From positions 808,364-872,363 of the forward strand of contig ML996696.1 in the NCBI GenBank assembly GCA_010356995.1: 64,000 nucleotides of DNA, written 5' to 3'. Positions 12,436 to 29,821 of this stretch are shown here, in pieces. Positions within the stretch are counted from its first letter, which is position 1. Each line of letters starts with the position of its first letter. The notes beneath the pieces are model-generated. The model saw only the letters and a list, made by a program, of their open reading frames with translations. It was not told the DNA's origin and did no database searches. Source of the DNA: Trichodelitschia bisporula. Its lineage: Eukaryota. Position numbers and translations under genes: made by a program.

Positions 12436-13966
12436 ATGAGCGGGCACGACTGGGTTGGGCGTGCGATCGAGGTGGTTAAGAAGGCGATCGAGTATGACCA
12501 GGCGGAGAACTATGAGGAGGCATACAAGGCGTACATGAATGCTTGTGAGGAAGCGCTGCTGGATTCGTGGGACAAGTGCTAATGATGGGCAGTGGAGCAC
12601 TTTATGCTAGCGTTGAAGTGTGAGTGATGCTGCTTGAGGCGTACTGCCTGGCTGACTGGTGCAGGGGAGAAGAATGCGGCGAATAAGGAGGTATTGAGGA
12701 AGAAGGTGGCGGAGTACATCTCGCGGGCGGAGAAGCTGAAGCAGCATCTGGACGATCAAAACGACAAGAAAAAGCCGAGTGCCATAGGGTCAAATGGCAA
12801 GGTTTCAGGCACCGGGGCCAAGGGAAAGTGCGTGGATATCGGCACTCGCTGAACAACTGAGTCGCTAACCCAAGTCAGGGCGGATGAAGAAGAAGATGCC
12901 GATTCCAAGAAGCTCAGAGGTGCCCTCGCTGGAGCTATCCTACAAGACAAGCCCAACATCAAGTGGGAAGACGTGGCGGGTTTGGAACAAGCAAAGGAAG
13001 CGCTGAAGGAGGCCGTCATTTTGCCCATAAAGTTTCCTCATCTCTTTCAGGGAAAACGCCAACCATGGAAGGGAATTCTACTCTACGGCCCCCCAGGTAC
13101 GGGTAAAAGTTACCTCGCAAAGGCCGTGGCGACGGAGGCGAACAGCACATTCTTCAGCGTCAGCAGTAGTGACTTGGTGTCAAAGTGGATGGGTGAGAGC
13201 GAACGGTAAGGCTCTCTAACATTTTACGAGTTATTCTAACGGCGCCAGTCTCGTAAAGCAGCTCTTCAACATGGCCCGAGAGAACAAACCATCCATCATC
13301 TTCATCGACGAAATCGACGCCCTCTGTGGTCCCCGCGGTGAAGGCGAATCAGAAGCGTCCCGCCGTATCAAGACGGAGCTGCTGGTGCAAATGGACGGCG
13401 TGGGCAAGGACTCGCGCGGCGTGCTCATCCTCGGCGCGACTAACATCCCCTGGCAGCTCGACGCCGCTATTCGCCGTCGCTTCCAGCGCAGAGTACACAT
13501 CAGCTTGCCAGACCTGCAGGCCCGCATCAAGATGTTCGAGTTGGCGGTGGGGACTACGCCTTGCAAGCTTACGCCTGCAGATTACCGTCGGCTCGGAGCG
13601 CAGAGCGAAGGTTACTCAGGGAGTGATATCAGCATCGCGGTGCAGGATGCTTTGATGCAACCTGTGCGGAAGATTCAGACGGCGACGCATTACAAGGAGG
13701 TATGTATCCCCTTTAATCGTGTTGCAAATTTACTGACCCACCAGGTCATCGTGGACGGCAAATCCAAGTTGACGCCTTGCTCGCCCGGCGACGCTGGCGC
13801 CATGGAGATGGACTGGACGCAGGTGGACTCTGAGAGGCTAGAGGAGCCGCCGCTGCTGTTGAAGGATTTTGAGAAGGCCATTCGTACGGCACGGCCAACG
13901 GTTAGCCAGGAAGATCTCATCCGCAATTCGGAGTGGACGAAGGAGTTTGGTAGCGAGGGGGCGTGA
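12436..13966 (+). CDS. VPS4: AAA ATPase Vps4 (ESCRT-III disassembly), 6 exons
   Basis: MIT domain, GPPGTGKS Walker A, IIFIDEID Walker B, LTPCSPGD beta-domain, [10 protein letters not shown]-terminus. Confidence 0.97.
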
Positions 13967-14339
13967 TTGCACATATGCAGGGTTTGCGCCAGCATGTATA
14001 AATGCATGTTTAGTTCTCGAACTTGGTAATGAGATGATGTGGAGTTGGGTTGAGGGTAGAGGAATATAGGGGACATGATTACGTCTATGAATGCCTTGTT
14101 TGTGGTGGGGCGGAAGTGTAGCACTCGGTAGGGATCTGGATACCATTACGCATGGCGTTGACACTGAGCGGTTGTTGTTTGCGTTTGTGGAGGGATGGTG
14201 AGCGCGTGGTCAGAATGTATACGTATCACACACAAGGGGCATGAGGTTCTGGTGTTGAGTACATTTCAATTCCTCGTGATATTCTTGCCGTCAACGGTAG
14301 TGTCCAGCAACTCTTGGTTATCATCTACCATGCTAATAG

Positions 14340-14945
14340 TCCACACAATGAACAACCAAACAGGGACATGGGAGGCGAGGGTTGGCATCCCGACCGCGAG
14401 CGTTGCTAACTGTAGCAAACTCAACCACTTCCTGACAATCTCGCTCTTTCCGTTCCGCATCTTCCGTTCTTCAGGATGCGTCCGCCGGCCCGCTTCCAGC
14501 ATTGATCCAAATCCGACCGTCCTGGGCCAAAGTACTTCAACCGCCCAACCCCTAACGACATGGTAATTTTGAACAGCAGGCCTAGCAGCCCCGGGTTGCC
14601 ACCTCTGATGCCAGAGTCTACACGGCGAGCAACCGAGCAGCGACATAGGAGGAACGGGTTGTTGCCCCGACCGCGAGCGCTGCTAATCGTTGACAGCTCC
14701 ACCACTTGTTGACAATCTTTGTCTTTCCTTTCTTCGGGATCCGCCCACAAGCCCGCTTCTAGCATTGATCAACATCCGATCGCCCTGGGACGAAGTGCTT
14801 CAAGCCCCCATGAAATCGACGTCTTCAACGGCAGGACCAGCAACCCCTTGGTCACTGCCTCTAATGCCAGAATCTACAGCATGAACAACCAAACAGAGAC
14901 ATGCATTTCGCGCATTTGGGACCCGGCGGGGGATGGCTAATCGTG
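14340..14945. repeat. Degenerate tandem repeat A, ~265-280 bp, about 2.3 copies
   Basis: ccgaccgcgagcg(t/c)tgctaa at ~14390/14670; cccgcttc(c/t)agcattgatc at ~14490/14752; atgaacaaccaaacag at ~14348/14881. Confidence 0.8.
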
Positions 14946-15419
14946 AGCCATCCTCCGGCCCGGACACACCGTCCGTCTCCGGCATTCGCTGCACCAATTC
15001 CTGAGCTCATTCTTAAGCCTGCAACCGCTCGTCGGACCCGATCACCGTCCGCAAAAGGCGCAATCCGGATCTAAGACTCGCCGCGGTACACGCCCGGATG
15101 GGGGCTTCGACGAATTCGACCATACCTTTTGATCAGAGGGAATAGCTCTGATTGCTGCTTTGATCGGATCGGATAGACGAGACGAGTGCAAGTGTAGGGA
15201 TCGAAGAAGTGCAGGAGGTATCTGTTGCCGTCGAAGATGGTTCACAGAACATCAAGTCCCCGGCTCTGTCCAGAGAGCACACCGCCACGCCTGAGAATTC
15301 TTCCGTAGGGTTGCTGCCCCGGCAGGGAGAGCCCCCTCAGGTAGCTGCCGGCCCTGTTCAAGGAAGCTCCGGAAGCTCCGGAAGCAGTGCGTTGTTGCCC
15401 CTGGAGACAGCGACGCCCG

Positions 15420-16640
15420 GAACGGCAGCGAGAGGAAAGCGATAGAAGAAGGGTATCCAAGCGATGCCTGTGCGGCTGTGTCGAGCACGCTCTAGAAGAA
15501 GCGGGTATCTGGAGCTGAAGGCGGCGCAGGCACGAATTTGTCGCGATGGTTGGTTCCCCGACACCAGATTTTGAGAGCCATGGAGTCGAGGAATGTTGGT
15601 CCGCGAAAGCAGAGGAGAGTTCTGGGGATCAGAAAGGTTGATGTCGCTGGTATGATGCGTCATGAGGAACACGCTCTGCCCGACCGGGTTCCACGGACAC
15701 ATTGCCTGGATCCCACATGGAACGGACCCATTGATAGGGTCCTTCGCCGTCCTTGGAACAGCCGCCGGGCCCGACCACAGTCCGCAAGACGCGCAACCCA
15801 GCCCCATAGGATAGTGGTGGTAATATCCGGGCTAGCTCTGCCTCGAAAGCGCACCGCAACACCAGAGTAATAGGAGAAGGAGTAGGAGGCCCGGACTTGG
15901 AGCCGTCTGGTAGAAGACGCTAGAATACCGAGCGCGCTCTGGCAACGAGGGGACATCCAGCGCCGAGTCGGGCGGGGTGAGGTTGTTATCGGGCCTCTAG
16001 TGATGCCTGGAGTGATGTGTGGTTGCCGTGGTGATCCCCAAGACACCATGTCCGTGAAAATTTCACTTTGGTCTTGGTCGACAGCTTGCCCTTTGAGGAC
16101 GAGACTTTGGAGGTGTGTATCCGGGGCTAGTTCTGCCCCAAAAGCGTACCGCAACGCCGGAGACTTCCGAAACCCGGATGAATGCCCCTATCTGCCTTCG
16201 TTTTCAGCCTTGACTACATCGCATTAATCTCCCAGACAGAGAATGGGAATCGACTTGCCTCCTGCAGGCGCTCGAAGCTTTTCGAGCATTGGACACGCCT
16301 TTAAGACTGCTACTGCGAGTTAGCCAGCTGGACAACTCGCGATTGGACAACAGTTAAAAGCCCACCTTCGGCTCCAACTTTGCAGCCCCTTTCGACGTCA
16401 CAATGGTTGAACAAAGGGCGTGTAATGTTTATAGGGGAGAGTAGAAAGCCCGCCCGGCCTTGGAGTCATCCGAGTAGAGGCCATTAGCATACCGAGCGTG
16501 CTCTGGTAATGAGCGGACATCTAGCGCCGGGGTGGGCACACGGGCGAATTCGTCGTCGAAGTTTGCTGCCGGGTACCAGATATTGAGAGCCATGGAGTCG
16601 TAGGGACATGGTCCGCTCAAGGGCGCATTGAACAACTTTC
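15420..16640 (-). repeat. Degenerate repeat B (~500-560 bp spacing, ~3 partial copies) with a decayed coding-like frame on the minus strand
   Basis: tgagagccatggagtcg at ~15572/16583; ataccgagcg.gctctgg.aa at ~15925/16489; translates as DSMAL.IW and ALDV.SLPE.ARY. Confidence 0.6.
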
Positions 16641-16949
16641 AGTACGTGAGGCAGGTATTCTCGGCATGCCGACAGCTCGTCGAAGTTGTACTGGACGTCT
16701 GGAATACCTCCACGGTGCGCTCTACTGCCTTCTTTCTTGCCTTCTCTTCCTCATGCGGGTGCCTTCCTAGCTAAATCTGTGTGGTCTTCTGGACTAGTGC
16801 GTGCATGTCGAAGGTGCGCTCGTCTTCCCTGCGGGGACGAGAGGCGGTGTGAACTGAGTCCGGCGCGCAGGGGGCCGCATCCTTGTCTTTCTTGTCCGGC
16901 CTGACACAAGAGTCATGAGATCGACGGCGTGGCTGCGCCGGCCGCGGAT

Positions 16950-18230
16950 GGCGATAGTTCCGTACCGGAGTCAGGAAGGAGGCAGGCGAATACAATGTAG
17001 TCGATTGGCGCCATGCCGAAATGGGACGGCCTCAAAGGACACCCGAGCCGCCGAGCGCGCGATACGGTCGTGATCTGGAGTTGTATTCCGAGCCGGGCCA
17101 ACTTGCGGGCCGAAGGGGTGCCGAGGGCGCATGAATCGAAGAAGCGCACAACCCAGCGGCAAATTTTTAGTCTTCAAAGAACGCCTAGCCGCGAGCAGAT
17201 GCTGATGGTTTCGTAGAGGAGTCAGGGAGGAGGCAGGCGGACGCAATACGGCAGGAACTACATCCCCCGGGATGGCTCAGTACTCAATAAGTCCTGGATG
17301 GAGACGCGTAAGGCAGCTTCTCAATGTCGCGCCTCGCCCGCCGGGCGCGGAGTAGCGGGAATTTGCAGTTGTGTTGCGAGCGGAGGCAACGTCCGGACCG
17401 AGAGTGTTCAAGAAGGCAACCCAATACACCTGGTGACATCGGGGCGCGCGAAGGCACACCGACATAGCTCCTTTGTGATGTCCTCCAGGTGAGACACGGA
17501 GTCTGAATCGCCTTGTACTGTGTCGGGCCGGAAAAGGGGGGGCGGTGCGAGTGCCCGGCGGCAACAGAACGGCCAGTACGAAGCATGGTACGGTAGTGGT
17601 ACATGGGAGGCCAGTAGGCCCCACGAATTCAAGGCGGAAACTTTCAGCCCGGCTGCCCCGCGGAGTTTGTTGGTAACCTGGAGTTGAATTGCGAGCCGAG
17701 CCAACGTCCGGACCGAGGGCGTTCAAAAAGGCTGCCCCGCCGGACCGACATGAATCCTCCGGGATTTTCCCCAGAAAGACACGAATTTGGCGTTGCCGTA
17801 CTCTGTACCGGGCCGGAATAAGAACAATGTCAGGGCAGGCAACGCTCGCAGTGGGGCCAAGGTGAAGTACAGGCGGCGGTCCAGAAAAGGCCGAGCAGGC
17901 CCCACGAATCGAATACAATAACTTTCAGCGCAGATGCCCCGCGGGGTATGGTCGTGATCCGGGGTTGATGCGAGCCGAGCCAACGCCTGGGGCGATGGAC
18001 TTGAGTCGTCGGGCCGGGAACGGTTTGCGATTGGGTTGCTGGCGGCAACAGGACGGCCGAATACCGGAGGAGGGAGGCTGTCTAGACAAGGCCGAGCAGA
18101 CCCCACGAGTAGTTTGGCTTGATTTGAACCCAGGCTTTCACCGGGGGACCAAGTGCCCTCGACCGTTCGTATTGCAGACACCGACATGGTCGTCGGCTCG
18201 GGCCAACGGAGCTCGCTCAGGCGGAGCATA
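16950..18230. repeat. Degenerate tandem repeat C, ~290-310 bp, 4-5 copies
   Basis: (g/c)cgagc(c/g)g(a/g)g(c/g)caac motif at ~17088, 17376, 17691, 17970; aggccccacgaat at ~17616/17896. Confidence 0.75.
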
Positions 18231-18266
18231 AGTCAGCATCGAAAATTTCACACCCACTAGTCTCCT

Positions 18267-18348
18267 GGTCTTATAGTGTAGTTGGTTAGCACACGGGATT
18301 CTGATAAGAAGCTTTCCCGGGACCCCGGTTCGAGTCCGGGTAGGACCT
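18267..18348 (+). tRNA. tRNA-Gln(CTG) with ~9 nt intron (18305-18313)
   Basis: Acceptor GGTCTTA/TAGGACC, anticodon stem CGGGA/TCCCG with TT-CTG-A loop, T-arm CCCGG-TTCGAGT-CCGGG, A and B boxes, TTTT shortly downstream. Confidence 0.93.
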
Positions 18349-20794
18349 ACAGTTTTGCTTGCAGACCATGACTTTGGCGTGGTAGGCGCCCGGCAGGCGG
18401 GACATAAGGGGGCAAGATGACGGCTGTGTTGCTTCCGGCTGGATGGGCGATGTGGCTCCGCCGCCGGGAACGACCGTGGGATTAGAAGCCGCTGTGGAGA
18501 GGGGGTAACGGGTTGGGGGGGTGTTGTGTGGTCGGTGTTGTGTGGTCGGAGGAGGGAGGCGAGTGGACGGCGGGACACCAGCCCGGGAGAAATGTTTTGC
18601 ATCTGCAGGAAGCCAAAAACAGATACTGTAGGAGATCACCGTACATGAGACGCGTCGCGGAATAGGCGAGGAGAATTTCGCTCCCGAAGCGCCGTGGTTG
18701 TCGCATCGACGTGTATGGGCGGAGACAAGCGCAGCGGCCGCAATAAGTCTCATAGCTGAGTGCCCGAGGGCCAGACCACACAAGCCGTCGTAGGGCTGAT
18801 CTGAGAGGGAGGGTGACTGGACGCGACGTAACACCAGACCGGGGAAAGTCGTTGCTCGATGTTCAAAACCAGACACGACCCTCGTGGGAGCTCGCCGTGC
18901 ATGAAGCGCACCGCAAAATCAATGATGAACTCCGCCCCCCTGAAGTGCCGCGGTGGTCGCCTCGACGCATATGGGCGGAGTCAACCGCAGCGGCCGCAGT
19001 TCGTTGTACCGGCACACGACCGCAATTCGTAGTTTTTATCTTCGGCTGCAATTTCAAGGAGGTGGACCAGGCCGCGAGGCCGGACCAAACTAGGTGTCGT
19101 AAGAGGGGACTAGCAACCGAGAAATCATGTTCCGGCTTTCCCAGCCAGACAAACGCGGGCGGAAGCCGGTATAGGCCTGGAGTAGGAGGGCTCAGGCGAG
19201 CACCAACCATGATGGCCAAGATTGGGAAAAGGAAGGGGAGGCGTGGAAAGAGGCGCCATCCAAAGGTCGGGCTCATTGCCAGGAAGACACCCCACCGACG
19301 CGAACAATACCGCGAAGGAATAATTACAGGACACTCCATCCGGTAGATCCAAAGAGCCCCGGAATGCTGCATCGTGGTAGGAGGCTGAAATATAACCTCC
19401 TGCTCGCAGGCACTATGCTGAAGAAGATGTCACAGCTGAGAGCCGTCGATGGATTTGCTACCCAGTAGAGATACTGAGTAGTGAAGGTGATGTACACCAC
19501 CGACAGCACGAACCGACGCACAGTTATGCAACATACCCGGAGCCGGTCGCCGGTGAGCGGGACGCCATTAGGGGTAGCCTTAGCCGCCCGGCTTTGTACG
19601 CAGCCCAGGCATTCCCCGAACACTTCGGCCTTGTATGCGATTGGTCCAGTAGACATTGCGCGAGGGGCTGGGTCAGTTCGAGTACGATAGAGACTTGAGG
19701 CTTTCCGCTTGCACTCCAGGAGGATGAGAAGGTCCATGGCCCCTGACGACTTCGTACTATACTTGATATGGGGGGAAAGCCTTTCGGTCGAGCCCGAGGG
19801 CGGCTTCTTCGACATCCCAGCCCGTCAAAGCCGTTGAACCGGAGTCGTTCATAAATGAGACGGCCATGCTGGGGGAGCTCGGGGAGGGCTTCGGCTGTTT
19901 TCGCACAGGACTGCTCCATCGGTCAGGGAGTTTACCCCTTTTTGCCGGAGGACGACCTCGTAGGCTACCAAAGGAAAGTTGCAAGATACCTGCCTATGCC
20001 CGAGCCCGGGGGGATGACGAGGAGAGAATTGCGGCCCGAAGCCGACGGCACCGAATGGGCTTTTTGTGGCACCCGCCCGGTTCAACCTGGTGACGGCAGC
20101 CGGGAATGCGAGTGATCAGGTCTCCACCCAGCAGAGAGGTGCGCCCACATAGTCCTTCTTCCTCCCGCGCCGGACCCAGCCACATGGGTAGGCTGGATTT
20201 AAAACCCGGAATGTGGGCAAGGCGCGTTGGGCGCCCTCAGCACCGGAGAGCGGGCCGGAGGTAGATCCAGGAGTGATCAGGTCTCCTTCCAGTTGGGAGA
20301 CATGCCCACATGCGGATGTTTTCTCGCGGGCCGGACCTAGCGACAATGACCGCCGCAAATTTTGGCTTGCGAAAATACCCGTATAATGTTGGCGCAAGAA
20401 TGAGGCAAACAATGTTGATGAAAGCGAGTGTCTAAAAAGTGAAAGTGAAGCCCGTAGCCCTGGGCGGACCTCGCCAAATAGTGATGGAGGCTAGGGTAGG
20501 TCCGGGTGTGATCAGGTCTCCTCCCAGCAGGGAGGCGCGCCCACATAGTCCTTCTTAGTCCAGCGCCGGACACAGCGACAATGAGCTTGAGTACCTTTAA
20601 TGCAGATTGTAGGTCAGAGGCGCGTGGACGCCCTCGGTGTCTGGAGAGCACGCTGCTAAGCGTGGTCGGTCCAGGAGTGATCAAGTTCCACCCAGCAAGG
20701 AGACACACAGACGCATTTTTCGTCCTTCTCTGGCGCCGGACCCAGCCACCATGTGGCTTCAAGTAGGAAAACAGGAATGTGTGTAAGGGGCGCT

Positions 20795-20962
20795 GTGCTT
20801 CTTCTGGTAGTTTCTGGAGTGGTAGTACGCGATGTGGCATTTGGGGCACTGCTTCAGCGGCACGAAGAAGCTTTCTCGGCTCTTGCCGCAGCCGTGACAC
20901 TTCGAGATATCGCCTAGGAAAGCCGTCTGCTGGGGGGAAGCCTCGATCAACTTGTCCACAAA
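20795..20962 (-). pseudogene. MYND zinc-finger gene fragment inserted in a repeat D unit
   Basis: KCHGCGK..LKQCPKCHIAYYHSRNYQKKH matches the MYND pattern C-x2-C..C-x2-C..YCS..CQ..HW with two Cys lost. Confidence 0.7.
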
Positions 20963-21585
20963 GCGCCCTTGGCGCCATGAAGCCGGCCAGGTAGAAGCAG
21001 TAGGTGAAGCAGTGACCAGGTGTGCTCCCAGCAGGGAAACACGCGCCCACATGTCTTCGTCGTTTTCAAACCCCGGAATGTAGCCAAGGGGCGCGGTGAG
21101 CACGTCGGTAGGCGAGGTAGATCCAAGAGCGATCAGGTCTCATCTCAGCAGGGAGACACGCCCACATAAGGATGCTTTGTCCGCTTTGGGCGCCGGAGCC
21201 AGCCATATGGAGATTTTGGTATAAAAACCAGGAATGCGAGGAATGCGAGGAAAGCGCGTGTTGAGTACCGTCGGCGCCGGAGAGTGGGCCGGAGGTAGAT
21301 CCTTAGGGTCTCCTCCCAGCAAGGAGAGACACGCCCACATGCAGTCTGTGTGTCGGGACCCGGCACGGCCACAATAAGGGATCAGACCGAAAAACCCGGG
21401 ATGTAGGCAAGGATCGCGGCCCGAGTGGGCAAGATAGGTCCAGGAGTGCTCGGATCGCTTCCCAGCAGGGAGCCACAAGCCCACATGGTATGATCGGGTA
21501 ATGAGCCGGACCCAGCCACAATCTCGCTGCGGATGGAAAACCCCGGAAAAGTGAGCCGGGTGGATGCAGTGTGTCCGGGCCAACG

Positions 21586-21752
21586 AAGTGCTGTAGCGAT
21601 ACTAACACTGATGAATGGGGATCCCTGGCTAATGTATGCAGCGGCTTGGGTAATGGCAAGCGGCATGCACTCGAGTGTCTGAACCAGATCGATAGTGTCG
21701 CTGGAGGCTCGAATCCCACGACCGAGGGCAGAGTCGAAGTTCCAGTTGAAAA
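21586..21752 (-). pseudogene. NB-ARC (fungal NLR) gene fragment inserted in a repeat D unit
   Basis: DLVQTLECMPLAITQAAAYISQ matches the GLPL-motif helix of fungal NB-ARC NTPases. Confidence 0.8.
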
Positions 21753-21989
21753 TTCTGGGCTTCCCTCCCGGCACGGACACACGCCCACATAGCTTTCCCT
21801 CAAGGCGAGCCGGACCAAGCCACAATGAATTGCCCTTGGCTAAATCCGGAATGCAGGCAAGGAGCGCTGTAAAAGCCGCCACAACTGGCGGTGCAGACAC
21901 CGACGCGGCAAATCTCGGGCTGGACGCCGTGCTTTTTTAAGGCATCTGGGATGGATCGGGCCGTGTCAGAATCGACGGTGGACCAGCTA

Positions 21990-22800
21990 CAAGGTGCGGA
22001 GAACGCGCCGGGAGAGTAAGATGGTACGAAGGGCCACGGACGGGGCCAGACATCGCTATTTTTGACATCACCGTTATTTGGAGAGAGCCGGTCGTGAACG
22101 AGAGCCGGACGCAACCACAGTTACTGAAGATCGTGGACGGCCCGAAATGGAGGCAGCGTGCGCGTTCAGCGCTTTCGACACCGGGAAGCACGCCGGGAGA
22201 GTTAGATGGGTATGAAGAACAGCGGACGGGGCCGGACATCAATGGGCGTGGATGAGATCCTGGCTTCGAGAGAGTTGGATACGGGAATGGATCAACTGCT
22301 CCGATGCGGGGCCGGAGAACGGCGCAACGGTCGAATGTGAACATCGCTGGTGGTTGCGGTGCCGTTGAGGTGGACAAGAGTGTCATATGGGACCGGTTTG
22401 ACCGCCCTGGAGTCGAGATCGTGTCTCCTTCAGCAGGGACACACGCCCACATACGCGGTCATGGAGCTCTTCCAGGCGGGCCGGACCCAGCCGCATGTAT
22501 ATTTCGAGGTAAGAACCCGGAATGTAGGCAAGGGGCGCGTTCAGTGCCATCGACACCGGGGAAGCACGCCGGGAGAGTGAAATAAGTGCGACTGGTCACG
22601 GACCGGGGTAGAATAGTAGATTTCTAGCATTCGGAAATTCTGGTATGGAGAGTGGGATACTGCAACTGATAAGGCGTTCTGACGCGAGGCCGTAAAACGG
22701 CGCAAAGGTCGAACGTGAGCACCAAGGGCTGTTGCAGTGCTGTGTATGTTGATGATACAATGCAGTATGGGACCGTTTGACCTCCAGGGGGCCGAGGGAC
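21990..22800. repeat. Degenerate repeat E, ~375 bp, about 2 copies, including a repeat D-like core
   Basis: cgccgggagagt at ~22006/22191/22567; acggcgcaa.ggtcgaa.gtga at ~22319/22697; atgggacc(g)gtttgacc at ~22387/22767. Confidence 0.75.
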
Positions 22801-23439
22801 ACACAATGCCAGGCAATGCTGCGCCCGGTCAAGTTTGGAGCTGCTCGATGAACGGCCCGACCAGCCCCGAGGAGCGACCGAAATTGTACGACTTGTTGGT
22901 GCTCCAGTATTTGAAGTCCCTGGAGCCGAGAGGTGTAAATACGCGGAACTTGACTACCACCTGCGGCCTGGCGAGGCTGGGAACTGCTCAATCACGGTAG
23001 GCAGTGAGCCACCTGGATGGGTGGCCCGGCCAGACCCAAGGAGACGGGGACCAGTATGAGAGATGGTCTTTATTCCAGGCTGTGAAATGCCGGAGACAAG
23101 ATATATGTATTTCCTCGCCCGTCCTGTAACCAGATCAGTACTCGTTGACAGAATATCAGAGATCGAAGACTTCGTACCTGCAGACCACGCCCCCGTGAGA
23201 CGTCGCTCAGCAAGGAGGACGCCGGCAGGCGATGCGTGCGCACGTTTCCATACCAGGCCGCGCAAAGGCAAGGCCAGTTAAACTGCGTCAAGCCATCTCC
23301 CTAGGGCATGGTGAGGCTGTATTAACCCCCCGATCCGATCCATATACCACGAAGGAAAGAACCGTGATGGCAGTGGAAAGGCCGGAACACACGGACGGCG
23401 ATCAAGTTGGGTGCTGCACCGCCCGGCAGGACGGGCGGG

Positions 23440-26400
23440 TGAAGATGAGCGGACGGTGTGCCCGCGAGCCATAGGATGCAGCGGATCTGAGCCAGAACGA
23501 CAGCCGTGAGGGCAAGACGAGGCGCGCGGCAGAATATGGTGTTGGATGGCAAATCCGGACTGAAAAGAACTTCTCCAGGAGCGAGGAAGCCCGGCGGTGG
23601 GAAGTCAAGCCACCCTTCGGTGGTGTCCAGGACCGAATTTGCATATGCGTTGCTGGTATCAAATGCCCACGGTTCCAGACGCTGGGTAGTGCTGCGAGAG
23701 TGAGGTCGATCCGGTTGTGCACTGCCGCCCGCCGTAAGACCAGGACAAGGTATGCGGGAATGAGAACATCCAAAGTGCGGAACCTGCGGAGTCCAATTTC
23801 CAGCAAAATCATCCGGTGGTAAGAAAAACAAACTCCTGACTGCGGGGAGATCCCCCTTGGAAAGACGACCAAGGGGTATGCCGCGAATGGATGACCACGA
23901 GAGAGAACCGCGGCCGTGAGGGCGAGACGAGGTGCAGGGCAGCCATATGATGGTTCATTTTTAAACCGGGCTGGACAGCATGCCGAATCAATCAATTATG
24001 CTCGAAGATAGTCCATTGAACTGCCGCCGACGTCAGACCAGGACAAGACATGCCGGAACGGAAACATACCTCTGCTAGCCATGTCGTCTAGCCGCAAATC
24101 GACGGCCATTTTCGTGGTCCGGGAAAAGCTTGAGTATGGCACGAGAGCAATTGTGCGAGAAAGCACTCGATATGAGCCTGTGGGTGCTGACGGTATTGAC
24201 GGGAGATAACCGCGGCAGCGACGCAGAGACGAGGCGCACAGGAGACATGAGCGAATCGTGACCAGGGCCGGGCTGAACAGCAAGCCGAATGCGACATCAA
24301 GTTCGAACGCCAGGACGGCTTCGTGCTGCCTCTAACGTCAGACTAGGATAAGGCAGCGCCGAAACGGGGACATACCTTTCGAAAGCCACACCGACCAACC
24401 GCAATACTATGGAGCGTTTGGTGGCCCGGATAAACCGGAGTATAGAACGAGAGCAGTTGTGCGGAAAAGTACTCGATATGAGCCAGTGGGGTGCCGATAG
24501 GAGTGATGGGATAGAACCGCGGCAGAAAGGGCAAGACGAGGCGCGGAGCAGCTGTACCATGCTGGGAGTTAATTCCGGGCTGAACAGCAAGCTGAAACAG
24601 TCCCTTATGCTGGAAGCTGGTCCGTTGCACTGCCGCCAGCGTGAGACCAGGACAAGGCAGAGCAGAAAGGAAACATACCTCAGAGTAGCCCCATCCCTTT
24701 AAAGAGCCACACCGGGCAGCCGCAATGCGAGATGATCTCGGGCCGTCCGGATAAGCCTAATCAAGATCACCGGCACCATTATCGCCGCCCCCGGAACTGT
24801 CGACCCTGGGCATTCCCGTTAAGGTATTTTCGCACTTCTGAGCGCGGCGGGGCGAGATGATACCCTGCTCGAGGGCGGAAGAAATCGAAAGCTCCTTGAA
24901 GTCTGGGAGAACAGAAACCCAGGACGCAAGTATGAGAGAAAACTCGCGAGATGAGCCAGTAGGCTCGCCAGGATGGCGAGAGAACCGCGGCAGTGAGGGC
25001 GGGATGAAGCACACGGCCAGAAATGGGTTCATAAGTGATTAATCCGGGCTGAACAGCAAGCCGGATCAGTCGATTATGTTCGAAGTCGGGTTGTTGTACT
25101 GCCGCCGACGTTAGATCAGGACAAGGTAGTACCGGAACGGAAACATACCCCGATAAAATCCCCCTTGGAGAGCCACACCGGGCAGCCTCAACTACGGCGT
25201 ACGATGTGTGATCCGGGCAAAGCCAGAATATAGGACGAGACCAACTATGGTCGAAAAGAGCTCGAGATAGGCGGCATGGGCTCGCCAGGAGAGAATCGCG
25301 GCAGTGAGGGCGAGACGAGGCGCAGAGCAGACATGCATCTTTTGTTTCAAAATCCGGGTTGAACAGCAAGCCGAGTCAGTCGATTATGCTAGAAGCTGGC
25401 CCCTTGTACTGCCGCCGACGTCAAACTATGACAAGCCAGTACGGGAACGGGAAGATACCTCGATGACACCCCCCTGGAGGCCACACCGGCCAGGCGCAAT
25501 GACTGGAGCATGATGTGACCCAGGCAAGTGGAGAAATGGGGCATAGGAAGCCAATGCGCAAGAAAGCACCCAGATAAGCCGCTAGCTCATCCGGCTTATA
25601 AGAGAGCACCGCGATCGTAAGGATAAGGCGAAACGCAGAGCAGACATAGCCATGTGCTGTGAAACAGGACAGAAAGGCAAGCCGAATGTATTAGTGAAGT
25701 TAAAAGCCGGCCCGTTGTACTGCTGTCGACGTTAGGTCAAGACAAGGCATACGGGAATGGGAACATACCTCGGTGAAATCCCCCTTGGAGACGTGGGAAG
25801 CCAATGCGCAAGGAAGCACCCAGATAATTGGCGAGCTCATCCCGGTGATAAGAGAGCACCGCGGCCGTGAGGGCAAGACGAGGCGCAGAGCTGACATCGT
25901 GTCCTTTATTGTAAAACCGAACAGAACAGCAAGCCGAATATATCGTCCAGGAAATAAACCGGCCCGGCCGGATACTGTCGCCGACGTTAGATCAGGACAA
26001 GGCAGAGCAGTAAGACAACATACTTTGCTAAGAACCCCTTAGGAGGCCGCGCCGGCCAGGCGCAATGTAAGATGTCTGGGCCGGCCGGACAAGGAAGAGG
26101 ATGAGATGCGAATAAAATGCGGTCAAACTCGAGATGAACCGATGAGCTCAGGACGGACGCTAGCAGGACAGGAATCGCATAGAAGAGCAGCGGCCCGGGA
26201 AGACTGCGATGTGCAGAGAAGAATCAGCGATGGTTGAGAGGGTATCGGGAACATACCACGTCGAACCCCCCTTGGAGAGCCACACCGGCCAGGCGCAATG
26301 TAAGATGTCTGTGCAGGCCGGAGAAGGAGGAGGATGGAATGAGAGTAATACGCGGGAAAAGCACTCGAGATGAGCGGATGGGCTCGTCACAGACAGGAAT

Positions 26401-26440
26401 AGCAAGGGAGGGAGTTGGTCCGTGAAGCCTGCGATGTACA
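23440..26440 (-). repeat. Degenerate tandem repeat F, ~305 bp, 9-10 units, each with a minus-strand intron
   Basis: gtgagggc(a/g)agacgaggcgc, ctgaacagcaagccga, ctgccgccgacgt(c/t)aga, cccttggagagccacaccgg recur about every 305 bp. Confidence 0.92.
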
Positions 26441-26555
26441 GAAGAGATTCGGCGGTGGTTTAGAGAGAAACGACAACAGAAGATGGATTGAGAGGAGGAT
26501 GAGAGGAGTGGATTGTGTGATTGAAGGCTGATGTGGGATGATGTGTTTGAGCGGA
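23440..26555 (-). ncRNA. Putative spliced repeat-derived long non-coding RNA
   Basis: 8 intact GT-AG introns with branch sites, upstream TATA and CT-rich leader, no long ORF; 3' end unknown and transcription is inferred. Confidence 0.5.
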
Positions 26556-26575
26556 AGATGGGGCGGTATATATAC
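26470..26575 (-). promoter_or_regulatory. Putative Pol II core promoter: TATATATA plus pyrimidine-rich leader
   Basis: gtatatatac at 26566-26575 followed on the minus strand by ~90 nt of C/T/A-rich, ATG-free sequence like the 5' leaders of other genes in this window. Confidence 0.55.
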
Positions 26576-26609
26576 TCTCCAAACCAGCATACGGCGGCTT
26601 TGCAGGTCG

Positions 26610-26725
26610 AGAAGGACTCTGTCGCCGTGGTGGAAGGACTCTCGGACCGTGGAGTAACGACTCACGCCGTGGAGGAAGGACTCTCTCGCCGTGAAGAAGG
26701 ACTCTCTCGCCGCGGAGAAAGGAGC
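26610..26725. repeat. Minisatellite G, ~21-24 bp x5 (gaaggactctctcgccgtg)
   Basis: Direct tandem copies visible in the sequence. Confidence 0.85.
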
Positions 26726-27180
26726 GCGGGGCGTACGGCATGCAACCGCCCCATCCGTCGAGACGCACTGCCCTATATCGCCATCAGGCGCAACAGGGAC
26801 CGAGAGCAAGCCGTATGAAGAAAGTCGTTCGCACTATCGCCTCGTCTCGACTTCCGCCCAGCATCCGGAGACATCGCAGGTGAAGTAAGAACCTCGCGCC
26901 GTCCGGGACGCAGCCGCTCCATCCGTCGAGTCACACTTCCCTCCGTCAGCATCAAGAACAACAGTGACCATGAGCAGGCCCTATGAAGAAAGTCATTTGC
27001 GCTACCAACTCATCTCTCCTTCCACTATTCACACCCTTAATGAGTTTGCGGCCATACCTCAAAGGCACATACCTCACGTTCATATATTGCCACAGCCTGA
27101 CTTCCTCCATCGACAACCAGCACAATGAGCCTGCCTTAACCCATCGAGCGCACATACCTCACACCACCTCCCCAACCCAC

Positions 27181-29821
27181 CTACCCACTCAACTCAACCC
27201 TCCTCGCAAGCACCTTCCTCGCTTCCGTAACCCCCACCCTCACCAACCCCAACTCCCCAAGACACACCCTCGCCTCCTCCCCGTCGCCAAAAATCCTCTT
27301 CTCAACGCCCCACAAGGTAACCTTCCCCCCATCCCCTCCATCATCCCCTTCCTCCCCCCTCCCCCCCTCCAACCCAACCAACCAAGCCCCCTCAACAACT
27401 CTCCTCAACCCCTCCCCAACAGCCACACTAACCAACTTCACCAAACACCCCCTCACAGCCTGCACATCCGCGCCAAACTGCCCCGCCCCGGCGGCACTAA
27501 ACTCGCGCCTTAGAAGCACATGCTCAAACAACTGATTATCAATCGCATGCGCCGTCTTCCGCGCAACACGGTGCAGCGGCGCAGCACCCAGCGCCTTGGC
27601 CAGGTATTCGAAATGGGTTGACAAGGTCGTGAGCAAGTTGTCGAGTTCCGGGGTCGGCGGGAGCGAGGGGAGGGAGTCTGGACTACGGGCCGCTGGGACA
27701 GGAACCGACGTCGAGGGCGCGAGGCTGGACCAGGGGTTTATCCGGGAATAGGCTGAGAGGGAGTTGCGCACGTTGTTGATTAGTAAGTCTGCGATGACGG
27801 CTTCGGTGCGCTCGCGCAGCCGCGTGTAGCTCGCCGCCGTTTCGTCGAAGAGCGCCCCCGTAGCCGTAGGATCGTCGAGCTCATCCGGCGGGGTGGACAC
27901 GGCGCGAGACGTGCGGGCCGCGACCTGGGCTAGATTCATGCTCCCCGATATATTTTGCCCCCTTGTGGCAGCGCGGTGTTGCAGTTCTGACCAAAGGGAG
28001 AGGAAGAAGACGTCGTCGCTCCAGTCGCGCATGGCCCTTTCGAGGTACTCTGCGCTACCGTAGATGCGGCATAGACTCTCGAGGCCGGCGACGCCTTGCA
28101 GGGTGATTTGCTCTTCGCGGCTGGTGCGGCCGATGGTGGAGGTGCGGGAGAGGTAGGCGGCTAGGCCGTCGGCGAGGCGCTCGTGGAAGAGGTCGAAGAT
28201 GGAGATTTGGATGTCGATTAGGAAGCGGAGTTTTTGGGAGAAGGAAGTTAGGGTGCGGTAGTGGCCTGGATGCATTAGGATAGGATCAAAGGTCACCAGA
28301 GCACGAACCTGTGGTAGCCTCGAGAAGATCGTTGACTCGGATTGCGGCCTTGGTCGGCTTGGTGCTCTTCGCATCGACGCCATCGTAGTCCAGATCGAAG
28401 CTATCAGGAGCATCGACGATCTCCTGGTAGCGGGCCAAGGCAACTGCCAGATCAGCTCTCATCCAACAGAGCGGCAGCACAACCTACAGTCCTTCTCCAC
28501 CTTGAGCCACTGTTCGAACCAATCATTCGCACTGAGCACTTCCCAGGCAAGGCCTCTCCAGCATTCCCCTTCCGCCCCAGCCTCGTACCGCCATTCATCC
28601 CGCAGCGTGGTGTCAAATTTCATTACCTCATGGATGAGGTGGCTCAATAGCTGCGGCCGACCCGAAACCTTGGGAAGCGTAGTAAATATTTTCGCCCTAA
28701 CCATCGGCAGCAAGGCTGTGACGAACGCAGACGTGGCATCGATATACGCAGGGTTGCGGGCGATGCTCGTGCCCCTGAACTTCTCCAGCAGCACTGGCTG
28801 CAGATTGTCATCCATAAAGTCATTGTACTGTCCGAGAAGCTTGTCCGTGACGTGGAACAGAAAGTACTCGGGTCTGTCCAGTCTATTGGTGGGGCGATCG
28901 GTCTCGAAGTGATACCTGAACGCCAGCTCGAGGGGGTGCACCATCGCCTGCAGTGGCAGCAGCACAAGTGGCGCTGTGGCAGGCGAATTGCCTGCTTCCT
29001 CTCGGGCTTCCTCTCGGGCCTCCAGCTCGGGTTTCTGCAGCTCCAGGAGCTTACCGATAGTGGCCCTGAAGCTGCCAACCATTGTCGGAGGCACCGTAGC
29101 GTCGGGAGATGGCCAGGAGATCTTCTTGAGGAGCGTCTCCAACTCACCGATGAACGATTTCTGGATACGATCATGCAGCGCCTTCGTCTTCTGCGCAACA
29201 GAGTCAAGAAGATGCGGGGCAGCGCCCTCAGCCGCATCCTGAAGTGGCTGGAGTGATACGGACAGACTGTGCAGGTGACGATATGCATCAATCGCCTCTG
29301 CATCGTGCGTGCCTAACCGCGCCACGCCCTCATTGCTGCCCAAGTCAGGTCGTGCCATGCATTCAGCGGAGGAGACAGAGCACACCAACCTCAATCGATC
29401 AACCTCTCGGAGCATCTCAACATATCCATTAGCAATCTCCAACCGCCGCATCTTGTCCATACTCGACTCGAAGCGTTTCACAGCCGCATCGCTAGTATCC
29501 GAATTCGTGGCAATCAGGAGGCGCCGGTCGATGTCCGCCTGCGCGCGCTCGAAGCGGTCTACGCGCGCACGGAGGCTGCTGTCATGTTCGGATGCGGCGC
29601 GTTTGGCCGATTCGAGGTCTTTTTGGGCGACATGGATCTTGTTCGGGTGTTAGAGCTGTCATAACGGGGAAGGGGGGGGAGGGGCTGAAGAGGCACACCT
29701 GGTCCTCGAGCAGCTTGCGCTGCGCAGAGACACTATCCAGCAGCTCGCGGAGCAAATCAAAGTCGGCCGGCGTCTGTAGCTTGTCGTCGAGGTAGTCGCC
29801 GACTCGGACGTCCCTCGCCAT
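27181..29821 (-). CDS. TIP20: RINT-1/Tip20 family, Dsl1 tethering complex subunit, multi-exon
   Basis: DYLDDKLQT, FRYHF..RPTNRLDRPEYF, LLSHLIHE..FD, WSDDVFFL, FSAAGAGQF. Confidence 0.92.

Follow-up and report, generated by a model that had tools for sequence, protein, structure and literature searches.

The window analysed here is a 64,000-nt stretch of DNA from the ascomycete Trichodelitschia bisporula (assembly GCA_010356995.1, contig ML996696.1, positions 808,364 to 872,363; all coordinates below are those of the window) with a G+C content of 57%. VPS4 on the plus strand ends near 13963 and RINT1 on the minus strand ends at 27181, and in the 13 kb between these two genes no recognisable protein domain was found by Pfam among the six-frame open reading frames (ORFs). 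On the minus strand of this interval, 26387-23494 (2.9 kb) is a head-to-tail array of one repeated ~300-nt unit, in which an exon-like part is followed by a short intron-like segment. The array lacks coding capacity and keeps its splice signals better than the rest of the unit.

A profile of the unit, searched against the window, gave six full-length matches (E 2.5e-59 to 1.9e-76), one further copy split by an insertion of ~160 nt, and three partial copies, that is, seven full and three partial copies in total. No unit copy was found beyond the array in the window, the four other profile rows (E 1.9-9.5) being noise. Both blastn and a separate repeat search of the window also recovered the array, in agreement with the profile. 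Tandem Repeats Finder (TRF) did not report it because the units, with pairwise identities of 48-75%, are too diverged. The unit length of ~305 bp given in the original prediction holds for the five central units but not elsewhere: the successive donor-to-donor spacings are 233, 255, 310, 310, 470, 303, 306 and 298 nt, the 470-nt unit being the one that carries the insertion. The putative exons 2-9 measure 180, 206, 261, 260, 420, 254 and 256 nt, with 249 nt before the ninth intron copy. The inserted sequence (24750-24910) is less pyrimidine-rich and lies within a 93-codon ORF that begins with ATG (24760-25038, minus strand) and has no Pfam match. Substitutions between units comprise 1516 transitions and 1412 transversions; transitions being about as frequent as transversions, repeat-induced point mutation (RIP) was ruled out as the source of the divergence, and since the substitutions are not RIP-like, the divergence looks old and not the result of a burst. 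As for composition, the minus strand of 23400-26560 is 56-67% pyrimidine throughout, TAG is under-represented in it (13 versus 34 expected from base composition) and CAT is over-represented (73 versus 46). A depletion of ATG across the array was considered and is not present (37 observed versus 34 expected).

Eight intron-like segments lie on the minus strand exactly where the original prediction had placed them (Table 1). Seven start with GTATGT and one with GTATCT (donor at 25458), all eight end with CAG, and the branch motifs are those claimed: CTAAC in three segments, CTGAC in two, and CTGAT, TTGAC and CTCAC in one each. The branch-like motif sits 10-13 nt before the CAG in all eight. Introns of the U2 type in filamentous ascomycetes have a GTRNGT-like donor, a YAG acceptor and a CTRAY-like branch motif ~10-20 nt upstream of the acceptor; judged by sequence, the eight segments agree with short introns of this type in donor, acceptor, branch motif and length. 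A genuine intron in the neighbouring gene, RINT1, is similarly built (45 nt, GTAGGT..CTGAT..CAG). Also as predicted, the most distal copy (23722-23771) has a broken donor, which reads GGATGT, and this ninth copy would probably stay in the RNA. A tenth, older intron copy, which has lost its donor, is found within the leader (repeat pair 26167-26253 / 26392-26478, 72%), and the full signal set is thus kept in eight of the ten intron copies. The seven core introns are constant at 49-50 nt, whereas the exons vary from 180 to 420 nt and are rich in indels. In the repeat search, the intron copies show 70-87% identity to the reference copy, and the flanking exon was duplicated along with them, as whole units align. 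A strict intron pattern has 35 minus-strand and 37 plus-strand matches in the whole window, of which six and none, respectively, fall inside 24021-26256. A plus-strand gene was rejected on this ground (no intron-like matches in the array on that strand) and for the lack of a Pfam match.

Several other identities of the introns were considered. The folding energies of all nine copies lie between z -0.88 and +0.62 relative to shuffled sequences; with energies as in the shuffles and no hairpin that spans both ends, a mirtron or a structured intron was ruled out. Introner-like elements, which the available text of PMC3609843 describes as longer than regular introns, stably structured and present in many copies in unrelated genes genome-wide, were likewise rejected, the introns here being 49-53 nt long and folding no better than shuffled sequences. 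A further acceptor downstream, at the first of the conserved exonic blocks described below (block A, ..CTGAY..TTCAG), was seen by eye in only ~4-5 of seven units and does not restore a frame.

Conservation within the array was measured on an alignment of eight exon+intron units, those of introns 2-9 with the broken ninth included; as a diverged subtype, intron 1 was not used. The claim that the splice signals are kept better than the remainder of the unit was borne out: mean pairwise identity is 0.89 over the splice signals (14 columns), 0.71 over the other intron columns (35) and 0.56 over the scored exon columns (250). Within the signals, it is 0.92 for the donor, 0.79 for the branch motif and 1.00 for the acceptor. 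When 14 columns were picked at random 20,000 times, from either the full set of non-signal columns or the non-signal part of the intron, 0.89 was never reached. Counted as Fitch changes per column on the unit tree, the signals score 0.23 (3 changes in total, 13 fixed columns), the other intron columns 1.14 and the exon columns 1.79, so the signal columns changed ~5-8 times less than the remaining ones, and none of 50,000 random draws was as low as 3 changes. The five essential splice positions underwent a single change (p 0.0007 versus exon columns and 0.009 versus other intron columns). No intron column varies more than the free position of the branch motif (the N of CTNAC), which changed four times, has an identity of 0.21 and lies between invariant neighbours; the branch sites vary mostly at the tolerated position, as had been claimed. 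These figures point to purifying selection on the putative splice signals while the units diverged to their present 48-75% identity.

To say that each unit keeps its intron but nothing else would be too strong, given that four exonic blocks (A to D, Table 1) and the non-signal part of the intron's 3' half are conserved too. As the four blocks are conserved to about the same degree as the splice signals, splicing is not the sole constraint. The three best-kept blocks, searched in the window with up to 3 mismatches, gave 6, 4 and 3 matches, all of them in the array and on the minus strand, with 0 expected. In the 3' halves of introns 2-9, two further stretches are conserved: CCTTGTCCTG precedes the branch motif, and GTCGGCGG, unusually G-rich for its position, separates that motif from the acceptor. 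A two-part pattern that joins the intron end to block A matched four loci in a scan of metagenomes, none of them similar to the array by blastn, and these are chance matches.

The exons are diverged and frameshifted and form no long ORF once spliced, in agreement with the original prediction. Their lengths leave remainders of 0, 2, 0, 2, 0, 2, 1 and 0 on division by three and are thus out of phase. After in-silico splicing, no stop-free frame exceeds 210 codons; the next two measure 202 and 197 codons, and neither of the two longest contains Met. These lengths are about the chance expectation for a strand with 56-67% pyrimidines, and a conserved cluster of TAA, TAG and TGA ~20-30 nt past the acceptor shuts all three frames in several units. 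The first ATG downstream of the TATA-like sequence (26254) is inside donor 1; the first past the leader (26180) opens a 6-codon ORF (ATG CGA TTC CTG TCC TGC TAG), as had been claimed. No Pfam family was matched at E 0.001 by the 147 six-frame ORFs of at least 60 amino acids (aa) in 13.9-27.5 kb; seven rows had E values of 0.0067-0.048, all under the curated cut-offs, and one of these lies in the array (Carb_bind, E 0.036). A 198-aa ORF (24782-25375, minus strand) had no match by phmmer among 1.84 billion representative proteins. A 133-aa ORF (24300-24698, minus strand), chosen because an assembly of spliced RNA would have extended it across junction 7, had no match in a word-based protein search. 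A repeat-protein gene with one repeat per exon was therefore rejected, since there is no continuous frame, the exons are out of phase and no residual protein similarity is seen. The alternative that the original prediction had kept, a recently decayed gene of this kind, is disfavoured by the deep divergence of the units and by frames that are broken in nearly every unit while the signals are intact.

A coding role of another form could lie in small peptides made from an ATG in block B, or in a repeat protein that is read in an unusual manner. Six of the seven core units do share a frame over block B (M-S-A-L-R-L-V-(S/L)-P-S-x-P-R-F-S), which is opened by an in-phase ATG in five units and entered from an ATG upstream in the sixth. 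Yet these ORFs stop after 23 to ~90 codons at unrelated places, and only ~6 of the ~26 differences in block B are synonymous (counted by eye), as is the case where coding constraint is missing; with no homologues found for the 198-aa and 133-aa ORFs and no Pfam match, we regard peptide coding as very improbable.

Signals that could delimit a transcript are present on both sides of the array. Five copies of a 22-nt motif lie 40-150 nt upstream of a TATA-box-like sequence, which is followed by a C/T/A-rich, G-poor leader (its first 300 nt are 67% pyrimidine). The putative exon 1 contains a decayed copy of the unit (profile match 26387-26244), and the intron copy there is the one without a donor. 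As RINT1, on the same strand, ends at 27181, the array has a putative intergenic promoter region of its own of ~600 nt. Between the RINT1 stop and the 22-nt repeats, a 140-nt segment occurs twice at a spacing of 168 nt (26716-27023, 74% identity). Downstream of the array, a unique intron-like segment (23124-23177) is possibly the last intron of the array transcript, and a candidate polyadenylation signal follows. The transcript ends, as well as a function of the array RNA, are presumed.

These downstream signals bear on whether the array could be part of a larger unit, either as the intron-rich 5' part of a transcript that runs into 23-14 kb or as a regulatory upstream transcript. A strand bias (A > T on the plus strand) continues from ~16 to 28 kb, the tandem duplications in 14-27 kb are all direct, and the weak coding relics found downstream are likewise on the minus strand. 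The AATAAA and the unique last intron-like segment, however, come directly after the array, Pfam found no recognisable minus-strand gene downstream, and intron-like matches in 13.9-27.2 kb outside the array show no enrichment (13 on the minus strand versus 11 on the plus strand). We consider a larger unit improbable.

Table 1 Features of the array and of the surrounding interval in window coordinates.
Feature	Sequence or structure	Position	Strand	Basis
Fivefold tandem repeat of a 21-22 nt motif, candidate repeated transcription-factor site	core CGGCGAGAGAGTCCTTC	26611..26723	minus	TRF period 22, 5.3 copies, 75% matches; repeat search
TATA-box-like sequence	TATATATA	26567..26574	minus	read in sequence; presumed promoter role
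Putative exon 1 (leader)	~290 nt, no ATG	26257..26545	minus	start guessed ~25-30 nt past TATA
Intron-like segment 1	53 nt, GTATGT..CTGAT..CAG, diverged subtype	26204..26256	minus	
Intron-like segment 2	49 nt, GTATGT..CTAAC..CAG	25975..26023	minus	
Intron-like segment 3	49 nt, GTATGT..CTAAC..CAGCAG; tandem acceptors 25723 or 25720	25720..25768	minus	
Intron-like segment 4	50 nt, GTATCT..TTGAC..CAG	25409..25458	minus	
Intron-like segment 5	50 nt, GTATGT..CTAAC..CAG	25099..25148	minus	
Intron-like segment 6	49 nt, GTATGT..CTCAC..CAG	24630..24678	minus	
Intron-like segment 7	50 nt, GTATGT..CTGAC..CAG	24326..24375	minus	
Intron-like segment 8	49 nt, GTATGT..CTGAC..CAG	24021..24069	minus	
Ninth intron copy	broken donor, GGATGT..CTTAC..CAG	23722..23771	minus	
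Array body	putative exons 2-9 interleaved with introns	23772..26203	minus	unit alignments, profile
Unique-sequence insertion in the 470-nt unit	~160 nt	24750..24910 (approximate limits)	minus	alignment gap block; split profile match
Partial unit copies		26387-26244, 26150-25975 (and 23567-23494, next row)	minus	profile search
Terminal partial unit copy in the 3' tail	blocks A and B only	23494..23567	minus	nhmmer E 1.7e-10; repeat-search copy 23489-23532
Unique non-repeat intron-like segment	54 nt, GTACGA..CTGAT..TTACAG	23124..23177	minus	pattern scan
Candidate polyadenylation signal	AATAAA	23069..23074	minus	read in sequence; presumed role
Block A, per unit	TTCGGCTTGCTGTTCAGCCCGG		minus	
Block B, per unit	CTGCGCCTCGTCTYGCCCTCACNGCCGCGGTTCTCTC		minus	
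Block C, per unit	GGCTCATCTCGAG		minus	
Block D, directly before donor	ATTGCGNCTGGCCGGTGTGGC..CCAAGGGG		minus	
Local duplication	period 277	14338-14902		
Local duplication	periods 563 and 1011	15482-16616		
Local duplication	period 280	17608-17998		
Local duplication	period 253	18552-18998		
Local duplication	periods 235-400	20110-22800		
Local duplication	period 168	26716-27023		

We propose that the array is a TATA-driven, spliced, modular non-coding RNA (ncRNA) on the minus strand that has grown by segmental exon-intron duplication, a reading that we hold to be probable, if only just. A spliced ncRNA would be the simplest account because the preserved GT/CTNAC/CAG code is strand-specific and correctly spaced and lies in noncoding sequence behind a TATA box. 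The ncRNA interpretation of the original prediction is thus supported by the conservation of the signals, the lack of coding capacity and the TATA-like sequence and 22-nt repeats at the place expected of a promoter, and it is weakened in that the splice signals are not the sole conserved part.

A number of points weigh against this proposal. Transcription, strand and junctions are all deduced from the DNA. Of four sequencing runs from two studies, two contain every word sampled from the sequence and may be the source of the DNA, and two, guessed to be RNA, contain 0.82 and 0.80 of the words; these shares speak neither for nor against transcription. The best contiguous window of 14 columns is exonic (block A, 0.88), and invariant columns also make up 40 of the 250 exon columns and 10 of the 35 non-signal intron columns. 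The signal columns were recognised after the fact, the eight units share one ancestor and are not independent samples, and conservation was measured among paralogous units of one locus in one genome. The exon blocks yielded no conserved structure (consensus -3.9 kcal/mol over the first 130 nt of seven exons, 1 of 12 pairs covarying), and Rfam gave no match at E up to 1 in 20-30 kb and, with the exception of one tRNA, none that reached the gathering score anywhere in the window. The same 13 kb that contains the array holds at least six other, mutually unrelated direct local duplications with periods of ~170-560 nt, and duplication may here be a property of the region rather than of a gene. Weak pseudogene relics are present on the minus strand of this stretch. 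Finally, another constraint, possibly one at the DNA level, also acts on the array.

Such a DNA-level element could be an array of binding sites (e.g. for CGG-triplet, zinc-cluster factors) or an ORF-free chromatin domain, the resemblance to introns being incidental. Block A has the form CGG-N13-CCG, CGGCCGCGG occurs in block B and TCGGCGG in the intron; this richness of the conserved blocks in CGG and CCG, the reach of conservation beyond the splice signals, the exon blocks in which RNA structure was not found and the 13 kb from VPS4 to RINT1 without a protein domain would all be compatible with it. On the other hand, the invariant and free columns fit a strand-specific splicing code with the right spacing and a length of 49-50 nt, the TATA box and the ATG-free leader favour a transcript, and the idea draws on a motif resemblance. 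We think it improbable, at about the level of the larger unit discussed above.

The duplications and relics of the region suggest, with somewhat more weight, that the array may be a neutral relic, i.e., a fragment of a former gene (exon-intron-exon) that was tandemly duplicated and is decaying without function and with at most spurious transcription. Besides the at least six unrelated local tandem duplications in the surrounding 13 kb, weak coding relics occur nearby (a MYND-like stretch and a match to a TPR protein, E 3.4e-3), and the donors have been lost in the two end copies of the unit. Neutral decay, however, predicts otherwise than what is seen: units only 48-75% alike have retained full signals in eight of ten intron copies, and the free branch position is the one that changed most. 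Residual protein similarity is absent in every frame searched, and stops are conserved in all frames. A neutral origin of the pattern is in our view unlikely, though less so than either the DNA-level element or the larger unit.

The patchwork of duplications in 14000-27000 is unusual for a compact fungal genome; inverted repeats were not found among the duplications of 14-27 kb. At 20820-20930 (minus strand) a MYND-finger-like Cys/His pattern with lost Cys positions was seen by eye (Pfam zf-MYND E 0.043, under threshold). A stretch at ~21640-21760 (minus strand), which reads ..PLAITQAAAYI.., has one weak match, which covers 21% of the query at 64% identity, to a protein of 400 aa with TPR_10 and TPR_12 domains. 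In 20100-22600 (minus strand) there are about ten copies of a ~50-nt element, which starts with ATGTGGGCG and contains a small hairpin (CTCCC-AGCA-GGGAG); this element was considered as a second intron family and rejected, two copies being intron-like and most lacking an acceptor. The only RNA gene found in the window is a tRNA gene in the domain-free stretch (18267-18348, plus strand; ARAGORN Ile, anticodon GAT; Rfam 55 bits), which at 82 nt possibly bears an intron. A small nucleolar RNA (snoRNA) host gene was rejected as an identity of the array itself, as Rfam gave no match and introns of ~50 nt are too short for a snoRNA.

Under the proposal of a spliced ncRNA, the locus would be an RNA polymerase II gene on the minus strand that was enlarged by repeated tandem duplication of a module made of an exon and a short intron. 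Its promoter, comprising the five 22-nt repeats and the TATA box (26723-26567), would start a primary transcript of ~3.5 kb, from which eight U2-type introns of 49-53 nt would be removed. The mature RNA of ~3 kb, ending near the AATAAA at 23074, would carry six to eight copies of each of blocks A to D, and through these would serve as a multivalent platform, or as a decoy, to which a sequence-specific factor binds, following the logic of NORAD and Firre. Preservation of the introns could reflect a requirement of splicing for the RNA to accumulate or be exported, or a role of the splicing events as such. A more far-reaching form of the proposal, which we offer as speculation and believe unlikely to hold in full, is that the array is a fungal modular long non-coding RNA (lncRNA), in which each ~300-nt module is bounded by its own constitutive, selected intron, the function hangs on the eight splicing events and the exonic blocks multiply bind a factor, and which belongs to a broader set of long transcription units, free of ORFs and assembled by tandem duplication, that lie between ascomycete housekeeping genes. 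The train of splicing events could in that case load export or stability factors or titrate parts of the spliceosome.

Among known repeat-module lncRNAs, NORAD is a single-exon RNA whose units carry Pumilio elements and stem-loops. The units of the array differ in that each has its own intron, and they have no UGURUAUA (0 sense-strand matches for either TGTRTATA or TGTANATA) and no conserved stem; the array's expression is presumed, and there is no sequence relationship between the two. The likeness is one of architecture: the available text of 10.1101/033423 describes the central ~3.5 kb of NORAD as a series of twelve ~300-nt units, products of an ancient tandem duplication that have diverged save for a few short motifs, and the array, at 2.9 kb, has ~300-nt units that are 48-75% alike with four short kept blocks. 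Firre provides a second parallel. According to the part of PMC4820808 available to us, lncRNA loci are enriched in local repeats, and the Firre locus has repeats of 100-750 bp, many per locus and found nowhere else, that are both exonic (RRD) and intronic (R0), the exonic repeat acting in the RNA as a nuclear retention signal. The array similarly has locus-specific repeats that span exons and introns, with no relation in sequence or motif. Firre is mammalian, ~100 times larger and has dispersed repeats, and in the same part of that source splice signals are not claimed as its conserved part.

The duplication of introns within one gene is also known from fungi. In the available text of PMC3609843, segmental same-gene intron duplications (SGDs) are near-identical short introns that were duplicated with the flanking exon, with length and fold energy as in ordinary introns, and the SGDs catalogued in annotated genes comprise 82 members in 24 species, with a maximum of 16 per species. 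Introns 2-9 of the array were, like these, duplicated together with the flanking exon in one locus; unlike the SGDs of that text, the array has 8-10 copies in one locus without a reading frame, and the copies are old (exon columns 56% pairwise) and not near-identical. For human long intergenic ncRNAs (lincRNAs), selection on splice-related motifs is reported in the available parts of PMC4245815 and PMC4338330. On that showing, splice signals and splicing motifs can be the main conserved sequence of a multi-exon ncRNA, a principle that would also apply to the array; the human work, so far as those parts go, compares many mammalian loci between species, whereas the comparison here is between paralogous units of one fungal locus. 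The repeats of Drosophila hsr-omega, a nuclear RNA with 280-bp tandem repeats, serve as a multivalent binding platform. In Gomafu/MIAT, tandem UACUAAC branch-site repeats bind SF1 as splice-signal-like decoys (PMC3116199, in the text available). The repeats of both are, unlike those of the array, not full exon-intron modules, and both are animal RNAs with no sequence relationship to it.

The array shares the unit architecture of repeat-module lncRNAs, with local units of several hundred nt that are diverged save for short motifs and that are unique to the locus within the 64-kb window. Repeat-module lncRNAs and segmental intron duplication are known; what is distinct here is the presence of an intron in each unit of a host without a reading frame. 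Our literature search found no published description of a fungal ncRNA made of tandem exon-intron units, which is weak evidence of absence.

Functional ncRNAs of filamentous fungi are mostly known as lists from RNA sequencing, with few sequence-level signs of selection. The paralogous units of this single locus constitute an internal comparative data set, in which splice signals appear constrained within noncoding sequence. Should there be no such RNA, the conserved blocks would indicate a repeat element at the DNA level. If it does, the array would be (i) a compact, genetically tractable analogue of the mammalian repeat-module lncRNAs NORAD and Firre; (ii) a clear case of introns that multiply by segmental duplication outside a coding gene; and (iii) a system in which to ask directly if selection preserves splicing itself in an ncRNA.

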